A stretch of 64,000 bases of DNA from Ruditapes philippinarum. Its lineage: Eukaryota. The notes under the pieces are model-generated. The model ran no database searches, was not told the DNA's origin, and saw only the letters and a list, made by a program, of their open reading frames with translations. Positions 3,401 through 35,308 of this stretch are shown here, in pieces (positions within the stretch are counted from its first letter, which is position 1; each line of letters opens with the position of its first letter). The position numbers and the translations under genes are program-made. The stretch is from the NCBI RefSeq assembly GCF_026571515.1, contig NW_026854050.1:1-64000 (forward strand). The letters run 5' to 3'.

Positions 3401-6400
3401 TTTATTTCTTAGTACTTTTATTTTCTTTGATATAGTTAAATTGACACAATATCAATTACAAGTAAATTATATCGAAACATTTCTAATACAGTGAGTTTAA
3501 AAGCAATAAAAATTGTTAAGAACTTATTTGTATAAACCAAGTTTTGATATTTGGGAAGGTGGTGTGTGAATTTCCGGCTTTGTGTTAGGCAAAACTTAAC
3601 TATTTCAAATAATTGCGGATTTTGCAAGAAAAAAAAAATCATCATTTCGATGGATAAGGGACCACATCACACTTTAAAAGCACCTGCGAGTGTTAAAACT
3701 ATATGTCCGCTTTCTTCAGTTAAAATGATATTGCTTGAAGTTTGAAAAATGATACATTCAAAATATAAGAATGATAGAAATATGTTTGGATATATGCTTA
3801 TGCGTATGCATGAAATCATTGCTTAATGATAAAAATCTATTGAAAATGGCAGCACAATCGGATAATATTTTGTTCAGGATAATTTTATTCTAAATGTAAT
3901 AAGTAATATATGCAATATGCATGTGTGCTAAACAACAGAGAAAGTCTTTATCATAACTCTTTTGAGAGTCTGCCATAATTTTATGGAAATAACACAGCCG
4001 TATATAAATTTGTAAAAAAAAAATATTTGATATTTACTGAATATTTTGTTGTAGTCACTTTCTGAGTTTTTTTATTTTGCTACTCGCAAAGTTGGAAAAT
4101 TGATATCTCACGAGACCCACAGTGGTAAGAGTCAAGTGTTTTCACGACCATAATCAGTCACTCCGCCATACAATAAAATTGCTGGTAGCATTTAATATAT
4201 ACAACCCGGATTATTGATTTATATTATTGATTTGGAATACAATATATATTAAGCACCTACTCGCACAATTAATAAAAAACCTTATTCTCTAAACATTGTC
4301 ATAGTATTACTCAATTATGTTTCTTTCCATATTTTTTTGTTATTAGAAAGCACGGGAAATGACGAACTTAAATGTTTCGACTGTAATGATATGACTCATT
4401 TGTACCTCTGTGACACCGTTAGTAAATGTTTGAGCGGCCAGGTATACATTTTATTTTATTACCATGTGTAAGCCGGGCTTATAGTTATGTTAGACACTGT
4501 AAACAGCAAACGACGACTTTCAAGCTTCCATGTCAAAGAACTTATGTATCCCTATGTGTTTTGCTTTATACAGTGATTGCACTATACATGTTTATTGTTG
4601 TTGCAAAGAGGTTATTGCTCTACATAAGAATGTACTGCAGAGGTTGAAAAAAATTTATTCACGAACTTGCAATTGCAATTTTGTATGAAAATAGTATTGA
4701 AACTGTATAATTACATGTTCATATTAACAAAAAAGATGTTCTATGGTGTAACATTAAGAGTTATGTGTACAGTGTTCCGTGAAGGTCTGACAACAAAAAG
4801 CGCAAAGTACGACATTACGATGCTGACAGTTCGACAGTACAATGGCAAAGCGCTGCAGTTCGGAGGTGAAAGTTCGACAGTACGATGGCAAAGCGTGGTA
4901 GTTCGATGGTGATGGTCCATCGTATTGTCTTATTGTCACCATCGTACTGTTATGTCATACAGTCTGACCAGTACGGTGTTCCATTAGGGCCCGAAGCATG
5001 ACAGTACGATGGTGACAGTTCGTAAGTATGATGACCAAGCGCGACAGTATGGTCGTGACAATACCACAGAACGATGGACAGTCATCATCGTACTTTCGTG
5101 CATTAAACTGTTCGTTCACACAGAAAATGCGCTGGTCCTAACGGAAGACCATAGACCAGACATATGATTGGCGATTTTTCTTTAACATAGTTTGTGATTT
5201 GTATTTTGTAAGGTATGCCATGTGGAGTCCTATAGAACCAACAGTGGGCAGGTGAAATACAACAGTGGATGCTTAGCCTCAGAGGTAAACAAACAAACAC
5301 ACAAAAGAGTGACACACACAACTATACGCACGCATGCATACATACACACACATTGTGAAATGTTAAGGGTTTGAACCAAAATACATATTAATAGAAAAAT
5401 GTAATTGATTATTTAAAAAATTGCATTAAAAATAATTTTTCTTTAGAGGAACACGCCATGATGAAACTGTTTTTTCCCCGTTCATTCCGAACAAATTTTG
5501 GTTTAAACACATTGTGGGGTATAAAAATGATTGTGGTTTTAACAAAGACCAAAAAATAAATAAAACAACCTCTATATCCTAAAGAAGACCGTTATCTCTC
5601 TGTCCGAATTTCGTTTCCGAGGTATTTCTCAGAAACTAATGGTTTGATTTCAATAAAACTTTCCGGGAACATTCAATACTAAAATGAGATGCGCATTATC
5701 ATCTGCATGCTCCAAACGAAACATCCAAGATAGATTTATTGCCCCTGAAGTTTAAAAGTACATATACAGAGTGATATTCTTTTCACGATACATCTCGGTA
5801 ACTTCTAACTGGATTTCAACCGAACTTTATGAGAGCCAACACATAAGTTATTAATTCGTGACCTTGACCTTTAAATGACCTTGACCTTCCAGATCAAATA
5901 ACCTTGTATTGATTTTTCTAAACTACATGTATGACAGTATCTTTGTTATTTTATTACTATTTCTATAAATGTACTTGGACAAAATAATGCTAAAATAAAG
6001 GAAAGCCAACATGGTGAAATGATAAAGAATGAACTCGTCCATGACCCTTTTTGTACTTGTTGTGATTAATGATAACCCGTATTCGGCAGGGGATATAAAG
6101 TAAACAAAATGTCTTGTATTTAACGGTGATCAAGTTGAACATTCGCGAATTCATTCAAAAGAAACCTTTGGTGATTTTAAAGTAAATTCAAAATGTGAAA
6201 TATTAGAAAAAGTATTTTTTTCAATATATGTTGTGCTTTATTTTGTGTTAACAGCAATGTTCTAGTAAGAAACGACAAACAAGTCAGAGTAAATCCAAAT
6301 GTGTTCACTGCTGCTCTTCACCACTTTGCAATTCGAACGGCTGTGGAGCTGAGGGTAAAGAAAACAACTTTTGACGTTTTTAATTACTTGCAGATAGAAA

Positions 6401-20400: not shown

Positions 20401-23400
20401 AGTCCATTGTCCTTTGTTTGTCTTAATACAGGACAATGGGAAACCATTGGTTTTACATGTCAACAAATCAGCTGTGGTACTCCATTGGATGTAGCCAATG
20501 CTCAAAAAGTATTTTCGTCAACAACTGTCGGCTCAACTGTTACATATACTTGTGATTCGGGTTTTACGGTTTCTCCAGTAAGCAGTCCATTGTCCTTTGT
20601 TTGTCTAAATACAGGACAATGGGAAACCATTGGTTTTACATGTCAACAAATCAGTTGTGGTACTCCATTGGATGTAGCCAATGCTCAAAAAGTATTTTCG
20701 TCATCAACTGCCGGCTCAACTGTTACATATACTTGTAATTCAGGTTTTACGGTTTCTCCAGTAAGCAGTCCATTGTCCTTTGTTTGTCTAAATACAGGAC
20801 AATGGGAAAGTATTGGTTTTACATGTCAACAAGTAAATTGTGTTGCACCTTTGGATGTAGCTTACGCTCAAAAAGTATATTCGTCATCAACTGTCGGCTC
20901 AATTGTTACATATACTTGTGATTCCGGTTTTACGGTTTCTCCAGTAAGCAGTCCATTGTCCTTTGTTTGTCTAAATACAGGACAATGGGAAACCGTTGCT
21001 TTTACATGTCAACAAATCAGTTGTGGTACTCCATTGGATGTAGCGAATGCTCAAAAAGTATTTTCGTCATCAACTGTCGGCTCAATTGTTACATATACTT
21101 GTGATTCAGGTTTTACGGTTTCTCCAGTAAGCAGTCCATTGTCCTTTGTTTGTCTAAATACAGGACAATGGGAAACCATTGCTTTTACATGTCAACAAAT
21201 CAGTTGTGGTACTCCATTGGATGTAGCCAATGCTCAAAAAGTATATTCGTCATCAGCTGTCGGCTCAACTGTTACATATACATGTAATTCGGGCTATGCG
21301 GTTTCTCCAGTAAGCAGTCCATTGTCCTTTGTTTGTCTAAATACAGGACAATGGGAAACCATTGGTTTTACATGTCAACAAGTAAATTGCGGGACACCAC
21401 CTCCTCTTTTCAATGGACAACCTAGCTACAGTTCCACATCTGTAGGGTCAGTTGCGCAATACAGTTGTACCTCAGGTTTTCTTGTCGAGCCTAACGATGC
21501 TGTAACATCCGTGACATGTCAACTGTCAGGGGAATGGGAGACCGTTGAATTTAGATGTATAGGTACTTCTTTTATATTTCACCAATTTCTCAATAGTTTA
21601 CGTAAAATGTATTTTGACGTAATTTACAAACAGCTGGTAAAAAACATTTGTTTATTGGACTTTCACCGGTTACAAAGTATTTTAACAATGTTAAAATCAT
21701 CAAAACATCGTCTGATGCATCTACCAGTAAGTCTATATAAAAATTCGCTCAGTTTTTATTTTATTTCATGCTTTTTTATATCATCTGTTTCGAGACTAAG
21801 AGAATGTTTGATTCTTTTAGCGTCTGTTCAACCTGGTAGTAGTTGTAATGTTGATTCAGACTGCGTGGATCCAGCACAAAGGTGTCTTTATACAGGACTT
21901 TATTCAATAGGGAGCCGTTGCATTTGTAAACCACTGTACGAATTTAACCAAACGCTTACTGTGTGCATAAAAGGTAGGTTAGGAACCATATATGAGCCGT
22001 GTCATGACAAAACCAACATAACGCAGTCTGATCAGGATCCATGCCGTTCGCTTACAGACCCTATAACAAGTAAAGAAACTGATTGCGAACAGCATGGATC
22101 CTGATCAGACTGCGCGGATGCGCAGGCTGGTCTGGATCCATGCTGGTCGCAAACCCATTATGTTGGTTTTGTTGTGACGCGGCTCATATCACACTTGTAA
22201 TTTTCATGTTTTCTCATGAACAGTTTTTATATTTCATTGTCTCCAATGAATAAACTCTATCAAACTCAGAATATCATTTTCATTGATTTATTCGGTTTTC
22301 TATACTTTCGGGAGATCTTTGTCAGGATTTTCTATTGCATTTGGTCTCTGGGTAATAATTTTAAGGGCAATATGACGACAGATGTTTAACTTTTAGATAT
22401 GGAGAAAGAATAATAAGTGCCCCCTATACAACTTTTGCAATATACATTAGTGGTTACCCTCCCGTCATCGTCGGATACCCACGGCCGAACCATTATCATT
22501 CATCAGCCGTGGGATTTTTTGCCGATATTCAGTCGATTAGAGGTGTGTCAAAGGCAGCTATTTCATTGGCTGCCTCACGATTTCATGAGGCGATTAAAAC
22601 CAATCAAAACGCTCGTTCTGTACGACGCTCGGTATTACAGACAATATTGCGACAACCATAGACGACGTAAAAAGTTTAACATCGAAAAATTAAACGATTT
22701 CCAGCAAGAAAGTATAGATAATTTACTTTTACAGCGTGATTTTTCCTTTATGATTGATATCTGCTTGCAGAAGAACTAATTTGGCGATAGTTTTTGCCAA
22801 TGATTTTAGCAAGACACGTGCAACAGTTTTTAACCGTGGGCGCTGCCATTTTTTTCTTATTGTTTTTACCTCCGCTGTTGAAGAATATAGATTTGTTAAA
22901 CGCGATGTCATTGGTAGATATTTTACGCACCTGTTGCTGTATGTCGACGCAAATCGATTCATTTTACCCACGGTTGATTGCATGTTATGTGACATGTTTA
23001 TCAATCGTGGGTATCCGACGATGCCCTCCCGTATGGTAGATCTGGAACATACGATAGTACATCCCAGGGTAGATGGAATGTTTACTACAGAACAAAGTCT
23101 TGCTGAATCTGAAAATAAAACTTAAAAATGCCAACTGGTATAAAAATCAATGATTTTAACCAAATATGAAATCCTATATATAGACACGTGTGTCAAGTCC
23201 AACTTCCTAAACTTTTGCGACATATATATAATTAACAAGATTAGATCATTTCTATCGTACACCGCCTGCCCTAGGCCAATCAGAACGGAGACATAAGTAA
23301 CACATGATTACAAAATGGACGACAAAAAAATCGAAAAAAAAACCCAACAAATCCCGGCGCCTTGGGGTATGCCATGTTTTTCTCGGGTTACCTTTATATA

Positions 23401-24970
23401 GACTAAATGTAATCTTAATGTAGACTCCTTTGGAGTAACAACATTTCTCTTAAAAGAAGGAACATAAGCTTTGTTGATGAGAAATATGTCTATTTCACAA
23501 AAACATACCGGTATTTCTGGCGGAACTTCGATTCCCAGCAATTTTTGAAATGCTTAATATACATGTACATGTACCCATACTCTTGTCATTTTTATCTTAT
23601 AGGAAAACAAAACCTAATGGTTTCTTTTTCTTTCTTTTTTGCCTTACATATAAAACGTGGAATTATATTAAATCAGAATATATTTTTTACATTTATTAGA
23701 GTTGTATGATGAATTTAGATTGAGAGCCGTTACTGTTTGCAAAATGAGCATTTATTTAACTTGCTAAATAATAAAAGAGAAGCATTTTCCAAATTAACTT
23801 GTTTAAAATATTTTTTTTGCTCAAATTGTTTGTTTTTTTCTGTAGAAAGGTTAATTATATGTTTCATAATGTTGCAATTGTGTATTAAGAACACTTAAAA
23901 TGAGCCGCGTCACGACAAAACCAACATAATGGGTTTGTGACCAGCATGGATCCAGACCAGCCTGCGCATTCGCGCATTCTGATCAGGATCCATGCTGTTC
24001 GCTATAAGTTTCTCTACTTGTTATAGGGTTTGTAAGCGAACAGCATGGATCCTGATCAGACTGCGCAGGCTGGTCTGGATCTATGCTGGTCGCAAACCCG
24101 TTATGTTGGTTTTGTCGTCACACGGCTCAAATAGCGTCAAATAAATTCTGATTAAGGTATCAAAATGTAAACAAAGTAAAGTGGTATTTTTTTGACTTCC
24201 ATACAAAATATTTAGTCGCTATATATGTACGATTCACCAACACGCAAAATCAACTTTTATGGCCAGTAAGTAACATTTTGGAGATTGTAGCGGGACAAAG
24301 ATAAAAACAAACAAACTAAAAACATTTTGAAAATATTAAGATATTTTAGGTTTTAAGCAGCATCTCTCAAAATCCATTGCAAAAGGCACCTATAATCTAC
24401 GTACCAAAAAGTGGTCAAAATATACAAAAACTTAGCCCTATATACGTTAGTCACGCAGTAGAAATATGGTAATTAATACTGCAAAATTAGTCATTAATCG
24501 CACATTACATGAAGATAATAGTACTTGAATCATGAAATTTTTACTTTTATTTGAATTGTATAACATGTTTCTCAAATTTAATCATCTTGAAATATTTTGG
24601 CTCACCTAAAGGCATGCAGCTTTATTAAAATTGTTCGATAATTTTTATTTTATGTTATAACAAGACATATCTTTACCTCATTTTTTCAGTTTGTGACAGC
24701 TATACATCTTTTGAAAGGTACGAGGGGCAATATATCCGTAAGAACAATGTGGGCGACAGCAGCGGCACCCCTTTGACAGAGTCAGAATGTCTGGCGTTTT
24801 GTGCGAATAATTATGGCAACCAATATCTGTCCGTAGACCATAGGCATGCCCGTCAATATGGAACAAACTGCTATTGCGGAAGTGCCACGAGACGGCAAAT
24901 TCTCGACAGTAGTCCGGACCTACTGTATGATGACTCGCAATATACACTGTTCACTAGAACGTGTAACTAG
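14175..24970 (+). CDS. Multi-exon gene for a secreted Sushi/CCP-repeat protein: signal peptide, PAN-like region, 15 CCP, EB/EGF-like, C-terminal PAN. Exons 14175-14487 (corrupted), 17467-17506, 18629-18787, 19001-21562, 21821-21973, 24690-24970.
   Basis: Signal peptide MLRTQLSGLIIILFIVMKFHAVDA-N. Downstream exons have AG/GT boundaries and phase-1 junctions; CCP C..C..C..W..C pattern. An extra small exon between 17506 and 18629 is possible. Confidence 0.75.
15328..15578. mobile_element. Fold-back MITE, Sola-type (copy 3)
   Basis: Same sequence; TSD AAAT. Confidence 0.85.
15930..16502. repeat. (ATT)/(ATC) microsatellite containing two assembly gaps (N 15959-16086 and 16223-16383)
   Basis: N runs flanked by ATT/ATC arrays; near-identical sequence follows both gaps. 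Confidence 0.9.
16786..17001 (+). mobile_element. tRNA-derived SINE, family A (uninterrupted copy)
   Basis: A-box-like GGTCGAGGGGTTAG, B box GGTTCGATCCC, (AAAC)n tail; three copies in the window. Confidence 0.85.
18629..18787 (+). CDS. Exon encoding a divergent short Sushi/CCP domain
   Basis: DCDTPDV..FGNLRQIGDVVKLKC..KECQSDGLWSQQPPC; ctcag|..|gtacgt; phase 1-1. Confidence 0.8.
19001..21562 (+). CDS. Giant exon encoding 14 tandem Sushi/CCP domains (183-nt unit)
   Basis: 2562 nt = 14 x 183; repeated CGTPLDVANAQKVFSSSTVGSTVTYTCDSGF..CLNTGQWE..FTC; acceptor taaag|, donor ATAG|gtact. Confidence 0.92.
21821..21973 (+). CDS. Exon encoding an EB/EGF-like cysteine-rich module
   Basis: PGSSCNVDSDC..RC..RCICKPLY..C; ttttag|..AAAG|gtaggt. 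Confidence 0.8.
21994..22185. mobile_element. Fold-back MITE, Sola-type (copy 4, left arm internally deleted)
   Basis: Same sequence; TSD ATAT. Confidence 0.85.
22466..23023 (+). mobile_element. 558-bp non-autonomous TIR DNA transposon with 9-bp TSD
   Basis: Perfect 18-bp TIR CATCGTCGGATACCCACG; TSD CCCTCCCGT at 22457-22465 and 23024-23032. Confidence 0.88.
23902..24128. mobile_element. Fold-back MITE, Sola-type (copy 5)
   Basis: Same sequence; TSD AAAT. Confidence 0.85.
24690..24970 (+). CDS. Terminal exon encoding a PAN/Apple-like domain
   Basis: VCDSYTSFERYEGQYIRKNN..LTESECLAFC..SVDH..NCYC..YTLFTRTCN*; acceptor ttttcag|, phase 1. Confidence 0.75.
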
Positions 24971-25850: not shown

Positions 25851-26932
25851 TACAACCACCATGACGTGTAACTTGATTACAAAAATTACCGATCTATACT
25901 TAATTAAAATCAAATATAATTAATTTATTATCAATCACTGCACATATACTTATCATAAATGTCAAAAAAATCTAAATGTAAGCTGTTTTGAAAAAAAAAA
26001 TCATATTTCAACATCTATAATATTATAGATTTATAAATATAACAATATATTCTTTGAAATTTGTTGGTAGATGATAAAGGGTGAGTTTTTTCTTTCTGTA
26101 TTTCCACTTTCCATTTTCATTGTCAACCAATTTTTGTGTTAGTGCGTGGACACGTAGGCATGCTTTTTAGTTGCTATATACATGTACATGTATTCACTTC
26201 TTAATTGTGTATTGGCATGTAATAAAGTTTATAAATCAGGTCTAAACAATGACAAACGAAGAATAAAATCCAATCGGTCTGCCTTATGGAATTATTATAG
26301 CCGCGCACACGCGGCGTCTTTGCACGCGGCGTCTAGTAGAAATGCTTATGTCCATACAGCAATGGGAAAATTTTAGAGTTGATTTTGTGTATAATTTTTT
26401 TTCAACAAAAATCACACTGTTTTCATTCTTTTCTGATAAAAATAGCTTTTCTGATGTACAACATGACAAAGGGCTTTAAAGGATTAGAATAAACGTTTAA
26501 CTTTCAAAGTGATAGTGCCATGTTTGAATATCATATTCTCTTTATCATTATTGGAGAGGTCATCAGACCTCTCCATAGTGTTCAGACTGATTGCTGGCGG
26601 CATCCATTTTTGCGTATCTGATTTGCAGTGAATGAATATCATTTTAAGCGCAAAAGCATTAGGAGCAGTCTACAAAAATTGTTTTGCGCATGCCCCGTTT
26701 CAAAACACGGCTTAACTTAAACGAAAAATTAACATCGAAATGAACAAATCGGTACATAGAAAAATCGGAAAATATCATTTACGTTACTTAACACTAAGTG
26801 CATGGATGTTTCATTCCGTAACTGTATAAATCGATTACCGTATTGTTTTCTGAATAACGTTTTACTATTTCATGTTCTGATAAATAGTAACAGTGAACAT
26901 TATAGCTACAATATCACCATGCACTATATATA

Positions 26933-27099
26933 CCGCCTCCATGGTCGAGGGGTTAGAGTCGATGACTTTTAATCTAGTAAACTCTCTGGCGTGGGTTCGA
27001 TCCCCTGGAGATGCTTTTTTTGTTAGTTTAGCGCGGAGGAAGGTTGTCTAGTACTGGTGTAACTCTCCAGGAACGATGGTTAGGAAACTACCCGCCTAT
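26933..27099 (+). mobile_element. tRNA-SINE family A, 5' part (interrupted by the YR retrotransposon)
   Basis: Matches the 16786 copy up to ACTACCCGCCTAT and resumes at 32145. Confidence 0.9.
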
Positions 27100-27255
27100 A
27101 GTCTTAACATGCCTACTCACAAATAACATAACACAATGTTGCAGTGGGCAAGACTTCGATAGAACAAATACAAATGTTAGAGACTTGTTTAAATTCAAAT
27201 TCGAGAACGAATACAGAAATAGATCTAATAGTATACTTGTATATTAGACATATGT

Positions 27256-28296
27256 TTATAACATTAACGTCTTAGAAACAGACAATCTCTTTTGAATAGA
27301 ATCTTTTATGTATGAATCTTTAGCTAAATCAGACTTCCATCTTCCATGTCGCTTAAGGCAACGTTCTGAAACACCTTCTGCGTTCGCGACCGCGGAAGCT
27401 CCGCTTGCGCGTAATGAATGCGTACCCAAATTCATGTCTGGCGCGACTAATTTTAACTTGCTAACAATACATTCACGTGCGCGAGAGTAACTAAGCTTTT
27501 TGTCTTTCTTTAAAAGAAAACATCTCGAACCAGATCTGCACGCTGGACGAAACAAATACATATCCGAATTAGAACACAAACCGGCACAATTCATGTATCG
27601 TTGTAACATAGAAACCGGACACGCACTAGTGACCCCTTTAGCAATTACTACGTACTTGCCTTCTCGATATACATCTGTTTTGCTTTTCTTAACAAAAACC
27701 TCTATGTAATCAGCAAAAAATTTAACATCACAACATCGTAAATCACTAACTTCATTATATCTAAAGAAAGCAGCAAAACACAAAAGAATCATTGTTAAGT
27801 CTCTTAAAACTATAATGTCTTTTGTTGTTGAAAATAAGTCACAAAGCTTCACTAAATGTTCCGGCAATAAAACATCTTTCTTCTGTACAGGCTTAGAGTT
27901 TGTTCTTTTTGCACATTCAAGCATTCTAATCACAATGGCATTCTTTGTGGGATCAGTTAAATCGTTTATTTCATGTAACCACCTTATTGCGTAAAACGCT
28001 GCTGAAACAACAGTGTCAGATTTATGTAAATCTATTAACTCCGAAAGATACATCGCTACATGGATAGGAAAAGCTGGGTAAGCTTGAAATCCGTGTTTTG
28101 AACAAAACTCTTTAAATTGTTTAACATGTGAATAATACTTTGAAATAGTTCCATCCGCTCTGGAATGTAAAATTTGATCGGCCATCCTGCCCACTACATT
28201 ATCAATATTTCTCACTGGAACTCCGGCATCCAGAAATTGATTTTTCAGATTTCGTGTTAAGCCAACACCTGAAAATATATTAAGCATATTAAACAA
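27256..28296 (-). CDS. Tyrosine recombinase of the DIRS element (probable splice acceptor at 28269, exon from 28268)
   Basis: Catalytic residues in FFRYNE (R), KSKTD (K), HSLR (HxxR), HGRW and the terminal SYI (Y); N-terminal SAM-like region. Confidence 0.95.
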   Translation of the reverse strand: MFNMLNIFSGVGLTRNLKNQFLDAGVPVRNIDNVVGRMADQILHSRADGTISKYYSHVKQFKEFCSKHGFQAYPAFPIHVAMYLSELIDLHKSDTVVSAAFYAIRWLHEINDLTDPTKNAIVIRMLECAKRTNSKPVQKKDVLLPEHLVKLCDLFSTTKDIIVLRDLTMILLCFAAFFRYNEVSDLRCCDVKFFADYIEVFVKKSKTDVYREGKYVVIAKGVTSACPVSMLQRYMNCAGLCSNSDMYLFRPACRSGSRCFLLKKDKKLSYSRARECIVSKLKLVAPDMNLGTHSLRASGASAVANAEGVSERCLKRHGRWKSDLAKDSYIKDSIQKRLSVSKTLML

Positions 28297-28349
28297 TCTT
28301 GAAAATTGACTGTACTATACGTTTTTTATCTGTTAAATATTTAAATCTT

Positions 28350-31300
28350 TTAGCTGGTACAGTCGCACCGCAATGCCATCATTCTGAAAGAAAACGGTTC
28401 TTTGCTGAAAACACCGTTGTTTCCCTTGCCTCTACAAACTGCGCCTGTAAAGGGTAACACAAATGTATTTTTAATGAAATCTTTAAATTGTCCCTGTGTA
28501 TCTACCAATAAAGGCCAAAATGGTGCAGACTTCCACTTTGGAACAATAAGTGTACCAATACACTTCTCTATTTCCAGTTTTACTATCGTCTTAGCAACGT
28601 TGCTTGGTGGTGGTACCAACCAATTATTTTCATTCTTCCACACCTGATCAAAACAATTAATACCCTCTGTACCAGGTACCCACCATTTTGAATTAAATCT
28701 CCGACACTTGCAATTATAGTGTGTAGCAAATCGGTCTACAGTGTGTGGACCCCACATTTTATCTAAATACTGAAATACATGATTGCTTATATACCAGTCA
28801 TCTGAGTCTAAACATCTACTTAAATGATCAGCTCTACTATTTAACGAACGAGGAATCCAGTCAACGACAAATGTAATTTGATTCTCATCACATGTTCTGT
28901 GAAAATCTAAGCAAGTTTCATGTAATTGCTCGACATTACTACCTGATTGAAGGATAAACTTTAAATTTTTGTTATCAGTAAAAAATTTGATACTCTTATC
29001 ACGTAGTTTCGGAAGATTACTTAACAACATCCTATACATTGCCTCTAATTCTCTCCATGTAGAACTACTTTTTATTTCTTGCGCATGCCATGCGCCAACT
29101 AAATGTGATACTTTCCCTCTAACACTGAACCCTTGATCATGTTCGTAATCTGCATAACGATCTGAAAATTCATACAAATCACTATCATACATACAATGCC
29201 CATCTAAAACATTATTTTTGAAAAAATGGTCCGTTTCCGGGAACCCACTAAAACGACAGCTCACTTCCGGGAGCCCGTCTATCCTCGTGTCATATACTAA
29301 AGACACGGAACTTGAGATCACTTCCGGTGAATCTATATTAGCGTCCTCTTCCGGGGACGATATTGTAATGTCCATTACATGAGTCTTGCAGTTCAAGACT
29401 TTTACCCTTGACAAATTCAAGTCCACTTCCGGGGACTTATTTCTTAAGTCTTCTACTGAAGACTTGTGGTTTAAACATTTTACCTTGCATGCTTTGTTCG
29501 AATCCAGCTCCCAGGATTCCTTGATTGAGTCTACCTCCGGAGACTTAATGTTTACTTCTTTTGCGGGCACCAGGTTCGAATTTATTACTTTCTTAAAATC
29601 TTTACTTCCAGTCTCAAAATTTTGGGCATACTTACTTCCTGAACTTACTTCCTTACTATCAAATGTATTCACAAACTCAATATACCCACCGTAGCCCAAT
29701 CTACTTGCATCTGTAAACACGACTGCATCAACTACTAACTTTTCTTTCCAGATTTTACCTTTTTTGTTCATACCCGACGCATTTTCTCGCCAAAACAACA
29801 ATTCTTGTAAAGCTTTGTCTGTCACACTTACTTTGCTATTCCAACTTGTTCTATTTTCTATACACTTATGCAAATACCTCGTTTTGCGACAAACCACTGT
29901 CCCCATGACACTAAGCAGTGATATCACCTGGCCTACAACTGAGGCTAAAGATCTCACCTGAATAAGTTGTGTATTTTCAGCCCTGAGCATTAACAACAAA
30001 ACATCTATAGATGATTCGAGACGTTTAATTCTCTCACAACTGATAAACAATCTATTCGACAAAAATTTTAAATCATGCCCCAACCAGCTAGCATGTTGAG
30101 ACGGTAACCAATTACATTTTTCTTGAGCTATCAAAAATCCCAATTCATTTAACGTTTTCTGAATGAACAAACTTGAAATGTTAGCTTGCTGAAAATCCGC
30201 ATTACCTCCAATGCCGTCGTCTAAAAACATAACGACTTTGTGACCTAAAGATCGCCAAAATTTTACTACACACCTTAATAATTTTGTGAAAATATGACCT
30301 GCGGTTGCTATGCCAAAAGGGAGGACGTTAAACATATAATATTTTGTTTTACCCTTAGATGTCCAAGAAAAACCTAAAAAAGTTCTATGTTTTGAAAAAA
30401 TTTCTACATGATGATAAGCGCTTTTTAAATCAAATGTATATACATAACTGGATATGTCAAACAGCTGTTGAGCGACTTTAATGTCTTCAAATTTAATTTT
30501 GAACAAATGTAAACAAGGGTTGATGTGCCTACAATCTAAAACTAATCTAGGCTTACCAGTTTTACTGTAAGCGACTGTTAAAGGGTTAATTATTCTTGGT
30601 TTATTCTGAACCTGTGAGATAACACATTTGCTCAATAAAGAGCTTATTTCTGATTCTACAAAATCTGGATTTTCTCTTGAAGACTTGTTATTTTTTAAAT
30701 ATATATCCGGGGGCGTTTCTCTAAAGGGTAGCCTATATCCATTTTCTACAACGTCAAGTAAATAACTATCTGAAGTGATTTTTCTCCAGTATTCTAAAGA
30801 TTCCTTAAGACGCCCTTTTGGCGATAAACCATTAATACTAAAATTACTTACATGATTTTTATCCTTTTCAGCAATAGTAGAAATTTCACATTGATCAACA
30901 TTATTGCAAATATAATTCTTACCGAAAATTGCTGGATAATCGTTACTATGACAACCAGACTTCAAGTTACTAGCTTCTCTACAATCTAAAGAATCAACAT
31001 TTAACGTGGTATCTAACATAATACCCTCTCTCTGGACAGAAAGTCCGTTGTCAACCATACAGTCTTGCGACTTTTCATCACAAAAAATATGACAATTAGA
31101 AACACTTAACTTATTGTTAGGACGCCTGTTTTGCTGACAGTCTGCCTTCCAGTGTCCAAAATCCCCGCAGGTATAACATGCTCCTGTACGCTGAGTCTGT
31201 CCTGTAGAACCCATAGAACGCTGAGGCTGACTAGTCGTCTGTTCCCCCGTGTTGACTCGTCTACGATAAGGCAAATTCCTTATTCTCGCCTTCTTGACCT

Positions 31301-31471
31301 TATCCGCCTTAGCCTTCCTATTCGCCCTGGCCTCCGCTTTGTAAATGCGCTTCTCGTCTTCACTGCCAGACGCAATTGGATTCGACTCATACTCCGCCAC
31401 GAGGCGCCAACCCAGCTCAGAACCATCAGCCAGTTGAATTAACTTCTGCCTCCGTTTTATAAGGTCTTTTG
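28350..31471 (-). CDS. gag C-terminus + CCHC zinc knuckle + reverse transcriptase + RNase H + Dam-like methyltransferase, in one frame
   Basis: gag RQKLIQLAD..GWRLVAEY; CYTCGDFGHWKADC; RT FDLKSAYHH, LPFG, FLDDG; RNase H FTDAS, WRELEA, FTDN, WIPRSLNSRAD; MT WGPHTVDRFA..WLVPP. Confidence 0.93.
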
Positions 31472-31659
31472 CTAAATAAAAATAAAGCATTTCAATTATA
31501 CTGTACATAACTCTTTGCAAATATTTTATACATGCATTCAATACACATTTACTGTTACATCGAGTCCATACTATGTTTACATAGTGCATACCTTAGACTA
31601 CACTGATCAGGCCACGCAAATTTATAAAATTGGTTACGAACGAAATGAAAAAATGTTAC

Positions 31660-31948
31660 CTTCTATAACTGAAACTCGTGCTCTATCGATATCTTGTGAA
31701 GACAAAGATGTGCTAACATCTTCTAATTTAGCCATTACTTTAGCATTATGTCTGTATTGCTCGTCATTACTCTTCCTTTTAAGTTTTGGTTTTTCTTGAA
31801 TATCAGAACAAGAAGGAATTGGAACACTTATCTTATTTATCATGCCCTCAATATTTTTCAACAGCTGCTCATTATTCTCCTTCAATGCTGACTGCACCTT
31901 GTCTTCAATAATCCCCTCCATTCCATCCATCCTGTCGTCGTCAGACAT
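31660..31948 (-). CDS. gag exon 1 of the DIRS element
   Basis: MSDDDR..KRKSNDEQYRHNAKV..VIE-G|gtaac; joins in frame to tttag|CA AAA GAC at 31471. Confidence 0.85.
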
Positions 31949-32144
31949 TTTCAAAATAAAGCCTAATAAAATTTACGCCTTGAAAGGACAGAAGTCAAGC
32001 CTAGAATGAAAACCCGCTCTGTTTTGCCGCCAAATACAGCCTAATACCACGTGACCGTTATGCACAAATGACTCGCGCATTTGTGAATCCCGCCATGTTA
32101 AGACATATGTTCTGTACTATACTATGTAACGTACAGAACTTTCA

Positions 32145-32191
32145 ATGACTAAAATACTGTTTGGAAAAGGCGTACAATGAAACAAACAAAC
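32145..32191 (+). mobile_element. tRNA-SINE family A, 3' remainder after the YR element
   Basis: ATGACTAAAATACTGTTTGGAAAAGGCGTACAATGAAACAAACAAAC matches the tail of the 16786 copy. Confidence 0.9.
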
Positions 32192-33651
32192 ATATTATAT
32201 GACCGAGTGAACCGTGTATTGAACCGGTATATCTAAATAACGCAAAGGGAGATTTTTTGGCGCAAATGGCACAAATTTTATCTCAAGTTTGATTTTCTTT
32301 TAATATTGTGGTTGGAGGCATGCAGCTTTATATACTGTTTATTCCAATAAACAGTATATAACAGTATATAACAGTATTTACTGTTTATTCCAATCAAATA
32401 TCAACATTTTTTATGTAAACTTGTTTGATTAACATACTTTATACTCGTTTTGGAAAATGTAGAGGAAATGCTTCCTTATATTTAACAAACCAGTGACCGA
32501 AAATTTGCTTATTGAACTTTACAAGAAACTTTTATTTTGAAAATACTTTTAATATAGATATATTTTTTCTAGTTTAAAATACAAATGTAAATGATATAAA
32601 TCATTTAATTTACATAAAGTAATTTTACAATTTTTTTTTGTAGAAAAAGTATCCCTAATGCGCCAAGAAAAAAGTCCATTTCTCCGGCATATAATCTTTT
32701 AAAACATTAAAAAAGATGAAATGTAAAACAAACTTTCATTGCAATATATATAATAAATTCTATTTTGTTTAATAATTGTAATTTATAAGCATTCATTGTG
32801 TTTGTTATGCAAAAATATCCCCAAATATTTTCGAATGAAACAAATTTTCCACAGCAGCAAAAAGACCTCTCGCATGCTTCTTTTTAAAGAAGCAAACTTG
32901 TCTAATTTTCTACATAATTGAGCTCGCCGTTGAGAGAGGTAACGACTGAGGCAGTGTCACTCACTTCATTTGCTCCGCCTCTGCTGAAGTTCAGATCCGC
33001 CTTAAATTGTCGCCAAATTTAATATGGTACGCCGTATGCTAGTATTTAGTATTCGTTGACGGGGAGGAAACCAGAACAACTTTGATCAATATCACTTGTC
33101 GAATCGTTAAATTACAAGTTACTAAGCCTAAACCACGCCCAGTATCAGATAGGCGGTTCTTCCTTAACCGCCAAACTATGTGCACCGGTTACGCTCCGGC
33201 CAGTAAGGCGAGATCACTGCAGAACAGTTCGTCCTCAAAATCATTCGACCATTATGCAATTCATACCAATATTAAAATGGACATATTCTCGGCACATATT
33301 GACTTGAATTTATTTTAAGTATACCAATCATTTCAATTTTACTTGTTATCCAATTTATTATGCTTCGACCAGACGTTTCAATCTTTGTCGCAACAGACAA
33401 ACATTTCAGAATTTCAGACATGGCATTTCTTTGTGAATAATTTTATGCATTAGGTTCTACTTTTTCACAAAATATGCAACTTATCATTATTAACAGCGAG
33501 CACATTCAAAGAACATGGAGAACAAATTGAATTGTGCTTCGGATATTCAACTGTAATAGAGAACGAGTTTCAATGCTGATTGAATGTTCACATCATTTTG
33601 CGGCGTCTTTGATGTGCAGCATCAACATTTAACTTGTAAATATTTATAATG

Positions 33652-34447: not shown

Positions 34448-34740
34448 GCCAGCCCGCATAGCTCAATCGGTTAGAGCGCGATACTTGTAATCTCGACATT
34501 GCGGGTTCGATTCCCGGGCTGGCCAACTAAAATTACTAATCAGTCTTTCGGATGACATTTTAAATCGAGGTTCCGTGTATGAGTGCTTAAACACTTGCCA
34601 TGCTAAAGAAGCAAAAGCTTCTGGAATTGGGGCATCTTTCTGTATCTGTATCTTGCACTATCCTCCAAAAAATATAAAATGACTTATACTCTTCTGGAGG
34701 ACTCGCCCATATGGTCAACCGGCGGCGAGTATAAATAAAC
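34448..34740 (+). mobile_element. tRNA-derived SINE with Meta-type core
   Basis: A box TAGCTCAATCGG and B box GGTTCGATTCC, followed by GTCTTTCGGATGAC..AAATCGAGGTTCCGTGT, which resembles the Meta-SINE core from memory. Confidence 0.7.
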
Positions 34741-35062: not shown

Positions 35063-35308
35063 CATAGGCACTTGATGGCAAAATTTTATTTTTATCTACT
35101 ACCCGTTGTGACCGACTCTCCGCCGTGAATTTTATAGATTTCTAAACTTTTATTAATAACTCAAACACTTATTAAATCAATAAAAATCTACCGCCAAAGT
35201 AGATTTTTTATTGATTTGATAAGTGTTTGAGTTATTTATAAAAGTTTATAAAATTCACGGCAGATAGTCGGTCACAATGAATTAAAATGTTGCCATCAAG
35301 TGTCTATG
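35063..35308. mobile_element. 246-bp fully palindromic MITE (CATAG termini, ~8-bp TSD; P-element-like)
   Basis: CATAGGCACTTGATGGCAA / TTGCCATCAAGTGTCTATG; arms pair up to a 7-nt loop; flanks CTTTCGTT / TTTTCGTT. Confidence 0.75.

Follow-up and report, generated by a model that had tools for sequence, protein, structure and literature searches.

The locus analysed here raises the question of how a tyrosine recombinase (YR) retrotransposon expresses a recombinase frame that has no proper start, and of why an element copied through RNA should carry an intron in gag. The window, a stretch of 64,000 nucleotides (nt) from Ruditapes philippinarum (contig NW_026854050.1, positions 1 to 64,000), contains on its minus strand, which carries all features described below unless stated otherwise, a PAT-like YR retrotransposon copy (27101 to 32145). 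We consider it probable that the RNA of this element is spliced at two donors (D1 and D2) and two acceptors (A1, the end of intron 1, and A2, the YR acceptor, both distinct from the split repeats A1 and A2), that its proteins are likely made in this way, and that unspliced RNA would serve as the genome. The D1-A1, D1-A2 and D2-A2 junctions all exist as DNA copies, the first in the family of the window element and the other two in sister families, and all four predicted splice sites and their phases are conserved.

The first junction lies in gag. Exon 1 (31660 to 31948) counts 289 nt, that is 96 codons plus 1 nt from the ATG, encodes the N-terminal part of Gag (GagN) and ends with GAAG in phase 1; its length is 89-108 codons in 12 of the 14 family representatives, the remaining two being frameshifted copies. 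Donor D1 (31654 to 31662; AAG|GTAACA, phase 1) opens intron 1 (31472 to 31659), a GT-AG segment of 188 nt (GTAACA..TTTTTATTTAG) that has stops in all three frames and a G+C content of 0.29, versus 0.50 immediately downstream. Behind it the pol frame runs on for 1039 codons without a stop, which together with exon 1 gives 1136 codons. The copy search in the clam's own genome, in which 40 of 55 candidates were scored, yielded 13 copies spanning gag, all with different flanks (L043, deleted, L044, decayed, and L067, at a contig end, were excluded from this count). The 188 nt are present in nine of them, and the other four (L039-L042) read GAAG|CAAAAG, which is the predicted junction exact to the base. 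A single clade for these four was rejected by a tree test (approximately unbiased p 0.0015), so that intron 1 was lost at least twice within the window family.

Divergent families were collected by a search with the YR protein. In six further families, bringing the total to seven, a GT..AG intron interrupts the same codon in the same phase. Lengths lie between 176 and 940 nt, the seven introns compared show no blastn similarity, and the YR identity among these families is 50-62%. Precise intronless copies were found in three of the six (L056; L071; L068, L114 and L115), and in the L068 family, for which 40 of 70 candidates were scored and GT..AG was verified in 2, three full matches and one partial match are continuous across the intron site, against 15 interrupted ones. 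In a quickly built YR tree of 33 rows the seven intron families form one clade (Shimodaira-Hasegawa-like approximate likelihood ratio support 95) beside families without intron 1; this tree omits L073, L079, L080, L091, L092 and L095, whose starts are frameshifted, and its branches among distant families are long. Two RefSeq models of a clam, P0122 and P0124, both computed, splice gag at the same residue. The substitution density of intron 1 (2.1%, versus 1.9-2.1% in the flanking exons of 8 young copies) is uninformative on selection. Two L068-family loci (C4138 and C10643 of G000) are interrupted at the site of intron 1 by 6.4 and 3.2 kb, probably other elements inserted into the intron. Intron 1 displays U2-type features (GT..AG ends, pyrimidine tract, exact removal), and on these comparisons we regard the 188-nt segment as a true spliceosomal intron, as the original prediction had it: its coordinates and phases for the gag donor, the segment and the YR acceptor hold on recomputation, and two of the checks it had named, intronless genomic copies and a conserved intron position and phase with sites at homologous codons in divergent families, came out in its favour.

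The recombinase is reached at acceptor A2. The YR exon (27256 to 28268, 336 codons, earliest in-frame Met after the acceptor at 28185) follows an AT-rich spacer (28269 to 28349, G+C content 0.20) that closes with the acceptor (ATATTTTCAG|GTGTTGGC, phase 1). Of 39 YR frames, 30 have a pyrimidine-rich phase-1 YAG at the homologous position; in four of the other nine the motif is there but followed by a frameshift. Conservation of the YR protein begins at this acceptor, and over the next 28 codons the YR frame is free of stops in 13/13 families, with stops in both other frames in all 13; upstream of A2 the YR frame contains stops in 11 of the 13.

The donor D2 (31104 to 31112; AAG|TTAAGT, phase 0) is non-canonical. 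It would be cut between 31110 and 31109, at the end of exon 2 (31110 to 31471), the remainder of gag with a zinc knuckle at about 31181-31131, and intron 2, from D2 to A2 (28269 to 31109), would remove pol with TT..AG ends here and AT..AG ends in most families. All 14 families carry the motif MAG|[A/T]TRAGT in phase 0 at a distance of 24-60 nt behind the zinc knuckle, with A at +1 in 11 families and T in three. In a distant clade, whose gag and pol occupy separate frames, a related motif lies 2-35 nt past the gag stop at 8/8 loci and always in one phase, the pattern having been loosened after inspection for three of the eight. Copy L108, of the sister family L083, joins D2 exactly to A2 (TCTCAG|GTTTGA), with pol gone and D1 unspliced, and its Gag frame terminates two residues past the join (ASQV-stop). 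The corresponding stop of the window element (28257 to 28259), three codons after A2 in the D2 frame, would end Gag at 220 amino acids (aa), and a stop at codon 2-4 after A2 in this frame is present in 13/13 families. Intron 2 is demonstrated for the L083 family by L108; for the window family it is suggested by the RNA contigs. Most of the element is present in 20 of the 24 listed sequencing runs, of which only X6 is recorded as RNA. Contigs of X6 end at 31110 and begin at 28270, the branch places of a D2-A2 path sharing AG, on the YR side their depth climbs from 14 to 29.6, and by bin arithmetic 291 and 290 depth x nt stay unexplained at 31110 and 28270, respectively. Being breaks of assembled contigs and not junction reads, these are compatible with D2-A2 splicing only indirectly.

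Three other readings of this region were rejected. U12-type introns have the 5' site RTATCCTT and end in AC or AG; the D2 site [A/T]TRAGT matches U1 except at +1 and is not a U12-type 5' site. A canonical phase-1 donor between the zinc knuckle and the reverse transcriptase (RT), as implied by the RefSeq models P0029, P0122 and P0124, is not conserved: phase-1 donors scoring at least 7.5 occur there in 5/14 families, at unrelated places. A -1 frameshift from the D2-A2 RNA into YR was dismissed for the window family because a YR-frame stop stands just before the junction. In the distant loci L097-L107, whose separate gag and pol frames overlap, an AT/TT donor-like motif stands after the gag stop, in phase 1 of the pol frame in 7/7 readable cases, the same phase as the YR acceptor; to judge from these phases, the D2-A2 RNA could there encode Gag plus a polN-YR fusion.

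It is unlikely that D2 is mainly a U1-binding site that shields the long RNA from premature cleavage, with splicing as a side effect. The base at +1 is never G in 14/14 and 8/8 sites while the remainder matches U1, as this explanation would have it, and U1 suppresses premature termination of Copia EVD RNA (PMC5580714). Such a role, however, leaves unexplained why an exact D2-A2 copy exists, why the phase of D2 is fixed and why a stop follows within four codons of A2 in every one of the 13 families; moreover, going by the depths in X6 (about 10 versus 14), a considerable share would be spliced, and the U1 and splice roles may coexist.

D1 also appears to serve the recombinase. Its homologous site is a phase-1 GT in 14/14 families and AG|GT in 13/14 (one copy per family), and in these 13 it is the sole phase-1 AG|GT of exon 1. 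Seven families without intron 1 keep D1 (AAG|GT) inside one unbroken gag-pol frame, and the simplest reading of this distribution would be that D1 is older than intron 1, which was gained once at an existing gag donor. Joined to A2, the lengths of the window element sum to 433 codons in frame, and copy L139 of a sister family has this very structure (repeat A1, gagN, GTCGAAG|GTCTGAG, YR, repeat A2, B2), with a single frame running from gagN into YR (KIVE-G-LSLKN); of roughly 100 copies spanning A2, it is the sole one starting two bases before the exon. The conserved phase-1 sites and this precise copy bear out the claim that the gag donor is joined to the YR acceptor as well. In the window family, the gagN-YR join of L043 runs through a near-repeat of 10 nt, located some 20 nt upstream of D1 and 45 nt downstream of A2; L043 may have arisen by simple deletion or by trimming of a D1-A2 copy. 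Two decayed copies, L144 (about 5002-5009) and L145 (about 4767-4776), have the same gap of 85 nt, which begins at the pol end and stops at the YR acceptor, possibly a third small splice, the copies being too decayed to call.

Slightly less probable again than a main role of D2 in binding U1 is that YR is translated from the conserved Met at 28185, by re-initiation on the D2-A2 RNA or from an internal transcript, with D1-A2 as a minor product. A Met about 28 codons past A2 is kept in 13/13 families of the fused clade, several RefSeq models (P0015, P0036) begin at its equivalent, and the sole RNA hint in the window family indicates D2-A2 and none D1-A2. Yet the 28 codons preceding this Met are open and conserved from A2 on, D1 is retained in families without intron 1, where no other partner for it is known, L139 is an exact D1-A2 copy, and 4/39 YR frames contain no Met in their first 70 codons. 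Finally, that the joined copies are DNA deletions at microhomologies of 2-4 nt and the 188-nt segment a private insertion is very improbable and largely refuted: AG, AGGT or TCAG is common to both sides of each join and such deletions do happen (L043), but in six or more families the joins coincide with predicted splice sites, in repeated and independent events, and the segment, far from private to one copy, shares position and phase with introns of unrelated sequence.

Besides the conserved Met, several observations weigh against splicing as the route to all three products. Among approximately 100 A2-spanning copies, a rough count over the window and sister families, D1-A2 and D2-A2 are represented by one retrocopy each, both in sister families; A2-spliced copies were not found in the window, L068, L075, L056, L093 and L070/L072 families, and the window family has no precise copy of either junction, L043 being ambiguous. 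A GagN-YR protein is absent among the 120 homologues listed. The joints listed for the contigs of X6, X1, X4 and X19, a listing dominated by a DNA-like run, include no splice junction; no weight was given to the missing branch in X1, X4 and X19, short junction paths being removed when contigs are cleaned. X6 has zero spare depth at D1, contigs of X6 and X4 contain unspliced D1, and X1, whose RNA status is guessed, contains the whole unspliced element. The intronless copies L041 and L042 have 12 derived changes in common, and hence a copy without the intron may at times be propagated in trans. The background of the D2 pattern (8 occurrences in 29.5 kb of downstream pol, or 0.024 per 90 nt) overstates the significance of the motif, as this was spotted by eye before counting and the families are kin. 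In addition, the assembly copies carry many indels, part of which are probably sequencing errors.

If the RNA is spliced as proposed, joining D1 to A1 would yield a Gag-Pol of 1136 aa, D1 to A2 a GagN-YR of 433 aa, and D2 to A2 the 220-aa Gag followed by a stop. We infer these products by arithmetic on the window family; the two longer ones had been foreseen, and the exon lengths and phases add up. The AT or TT start would weaken D2, so that pol is often retained, acceptor choice could plausibly set the Pol:YR ratio, and GagN may help to carry YR into the particle. Unspliced RNA would code for a 104-aa stub only and serve as the genome. Since exon 2 starts with C or T, D1 is destroyed once intron 1 is spliced out; intronless copies would then fail to make YR in cis and go extinct. 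Intron 1 is lost in roughly a fifth to a third of copies, a rate at which a neutral intron should disappear quickly, and its survival in seven families would be due to the lack of YR in cis in copies that have lost D1. We consider it likely that intronless copies are dead ends and that the intron persists for this reason. The claim that only unspliced RNA is copied did not stand, as the genome contains spliced copies for each of the three junctions; the separation of genome RNA from mRNA is likely enforced after copying, since spliced copies lose the donor. The spliced retrocopies fit with the DIRS-1 RT, which, according to PMC7192593, acts in trans and copies spliced and unspliced RNA. Beyond what had been predicted are the non-canonical donor D2 and the use of D1 without intron 1 by half of the related families. 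With less assurance than for the splicing itself, we lean towards the view that PAT-like elements share a conserved splicing programme, in which a deliberately non-canonical AT/TT donor apportions Gag and Pol and a gag donor starts the recombinase, and that in one clade an unlosable intron has made the genomic RNA non-coding and spliced retrocopies dead ends.

The gag-pol frame (28350 to 31471) encodes an RT (about 30452-30072), putative RNase H motifs and a methyltransferase (MT; about 28805-28575). Pfam matches of the element are RVT_1 (PF00078), zf-CCHC (PF00098), Phage_integrase (PF00589) and Dam (PF05869), the last with E 2.4e-6 and 27.8 bits, slightly below its cut-off of 28.1. RNase H has no Pfam match at E<=0.1; its putative motifs in the translation, FTDAS..ELEA..TDN..ADHLS, are separated by an insertion. 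An insertion of about 180 residues with repeated SPEVD-like units (29660-29130) lies in the RNase H region and is missing from most related families, and nine bases of the window copy at 30836 are missing from the contigs of X6, X1, X4 and X19. The window copy has the form A1-ORFs-B1 (ORF, open reading frame), with the split direct repeats A1 (31965 to 32145, 181 nt) and B1 (27101 to 27162, 62 nt), and displays no target-site duplication. Sister copies have the order A1 (181 nt), ORFs, B1 (62 nt), A2, about 600 nt, B2, seen in full in copies such as L031, L032, L034, L035 and L039-L041, where the A repeat thus occurs a second time after B1; the window copy, L037 and L042 terminate at B1 and are without the A2-spacer-B2 tail. 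Five loci (L045-L049) consist of A-spacer-B alone, the counterpart to copies terminating at B1; isolated AB repeats are described for Ngaro in PMC8547959. By its MT, zinc knuckle and internal repeats behind YR the element fits the PAT-like class in its echinoderm-form, Pat1-like variant as defined in PMC4157794. DIRS1-like elements have inverted terminal repeats plus an internal complementary region; this assignment was rejected, as direct repeats are present instead of inverted arms at the element ends, and so was Ngaro, a class with split direct repeats without MT (PMC4157794). Named homologues derive from bivalves; two close YR homologues (P0025, P0070) are labelled as a metagenome-assembled genome (MAG) of a bivalve gill symbiont and are likely host DNA in MAG bins.

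The element lies inside a very high-copy repeat (26932-27100 and 32146-32330), presumably SINE-like (short interspersed element) in view of a motif resembling a tRNA B-box, and the empty-site joints of run X19 likewise show no target duplication at the insertion. Further away in the window are inverted-repeat structures resembling miniature inverted-repeat transposable elements (22022-24132 and 35063-35308) and a tRNA-Thr(TGT) on the plus strand (34451-34525, ARAGORN).

The scheme offers a concrete answer to how YR retrotransposons may express a recombinase frame without a proper start, and a testable reason for intron retention in a retroelement, namely that the spliced copy loses a needed site. 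Retrocopies here preserve a record of which splice isoforms a retroelement makes. Gene models produced automatically for these loci, which start YR at an internal Met or attach it by way of an arbitrary GT, are likely wrong. The env gene of retroviruses and the pol gene of foamy viruses are likewise 3' genes without a start of their own that are reached by splicing from a 5' donor, and weak sites in retroviral subgenomic splicing leave unspliced genome RNA; unlike in retroviruses, the donor of the window element lies inside gag and would give a fusion protein; in the intron-1 clade, RNA left unspliced would code only for the GagN stub. Penelope-like elements and Ogre keep a spliceosomal intron despite reverse transcription, whereas here a sequence-level reason is visible, the removal of the intron destroying the donor needed for YR.

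The nearest relatives are the echinoderm-form Pat1-like elements (SpPat1, Lottia, Nematostella) of the PAT group in the order DIRS. As described in PMC4157794 and PMC3266345, they resemble the window element in having a zinc-knuckle gag, an RT and an MT with an RNase H between them (putative in the window element), a YR of the same orientation and split direct repeats whose B1-A2 part lies behind YR; they too lack a target duplication and occur in molluscs. The window element differs in its gag intron, its in-frame pol fusion and a YR and Gag made via splicing. Introns and splicing are nowhere mentioned in PMC3783388 and PMC3266345, nor, for such elements, in the searched passages of PMC4157794, PMC8547959, PMC12477816, PMC9940879 and PMC13465315; a full-text literature search returned nothing on them in PAT/DIRS elements, Repbase, Goodwin and Poulter 2004 and Poulter and Butler 2015 being outside its reach, of which the latter two may describe spliced YR elements. 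Spliced Gag RNA is known from the Ty1/Copia elements EVD of Arabidopsis (PMC5580714) and BARE1 of barley (PMC3735527), where a splice that ends the frame after gag likewise gives a Gag-only RNA and separate RNA pools serve translation and copying. These are long terminal repeat elements with one canonical splice, in contrast to the two donors and two acceptors of the window element, whose Gag splice has an AT/TT donor and would remove the whole of pol, and whose integrating enzyme would be splice-dependent. For the donor itself, PMC6280755 reports that TT and AT are, after GC, the next most used non-canonical donors in human cells, and that in TT-AG and AT-AG introns of the major spliceosome (FBXO9, ETV1) cleavage of AAG|TTAAGT-type sites takes place at +1, provided that they pair well with U1 elsewhere. 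Human AT/TT donors are rare and mostly secondary sites in that account; here the mismatch is conserved across the element group, so that natural AT-AG/TT-AG sites, found elsewhere mainly as rare or mutant human sites, appear to be kept in more than 20 element families.

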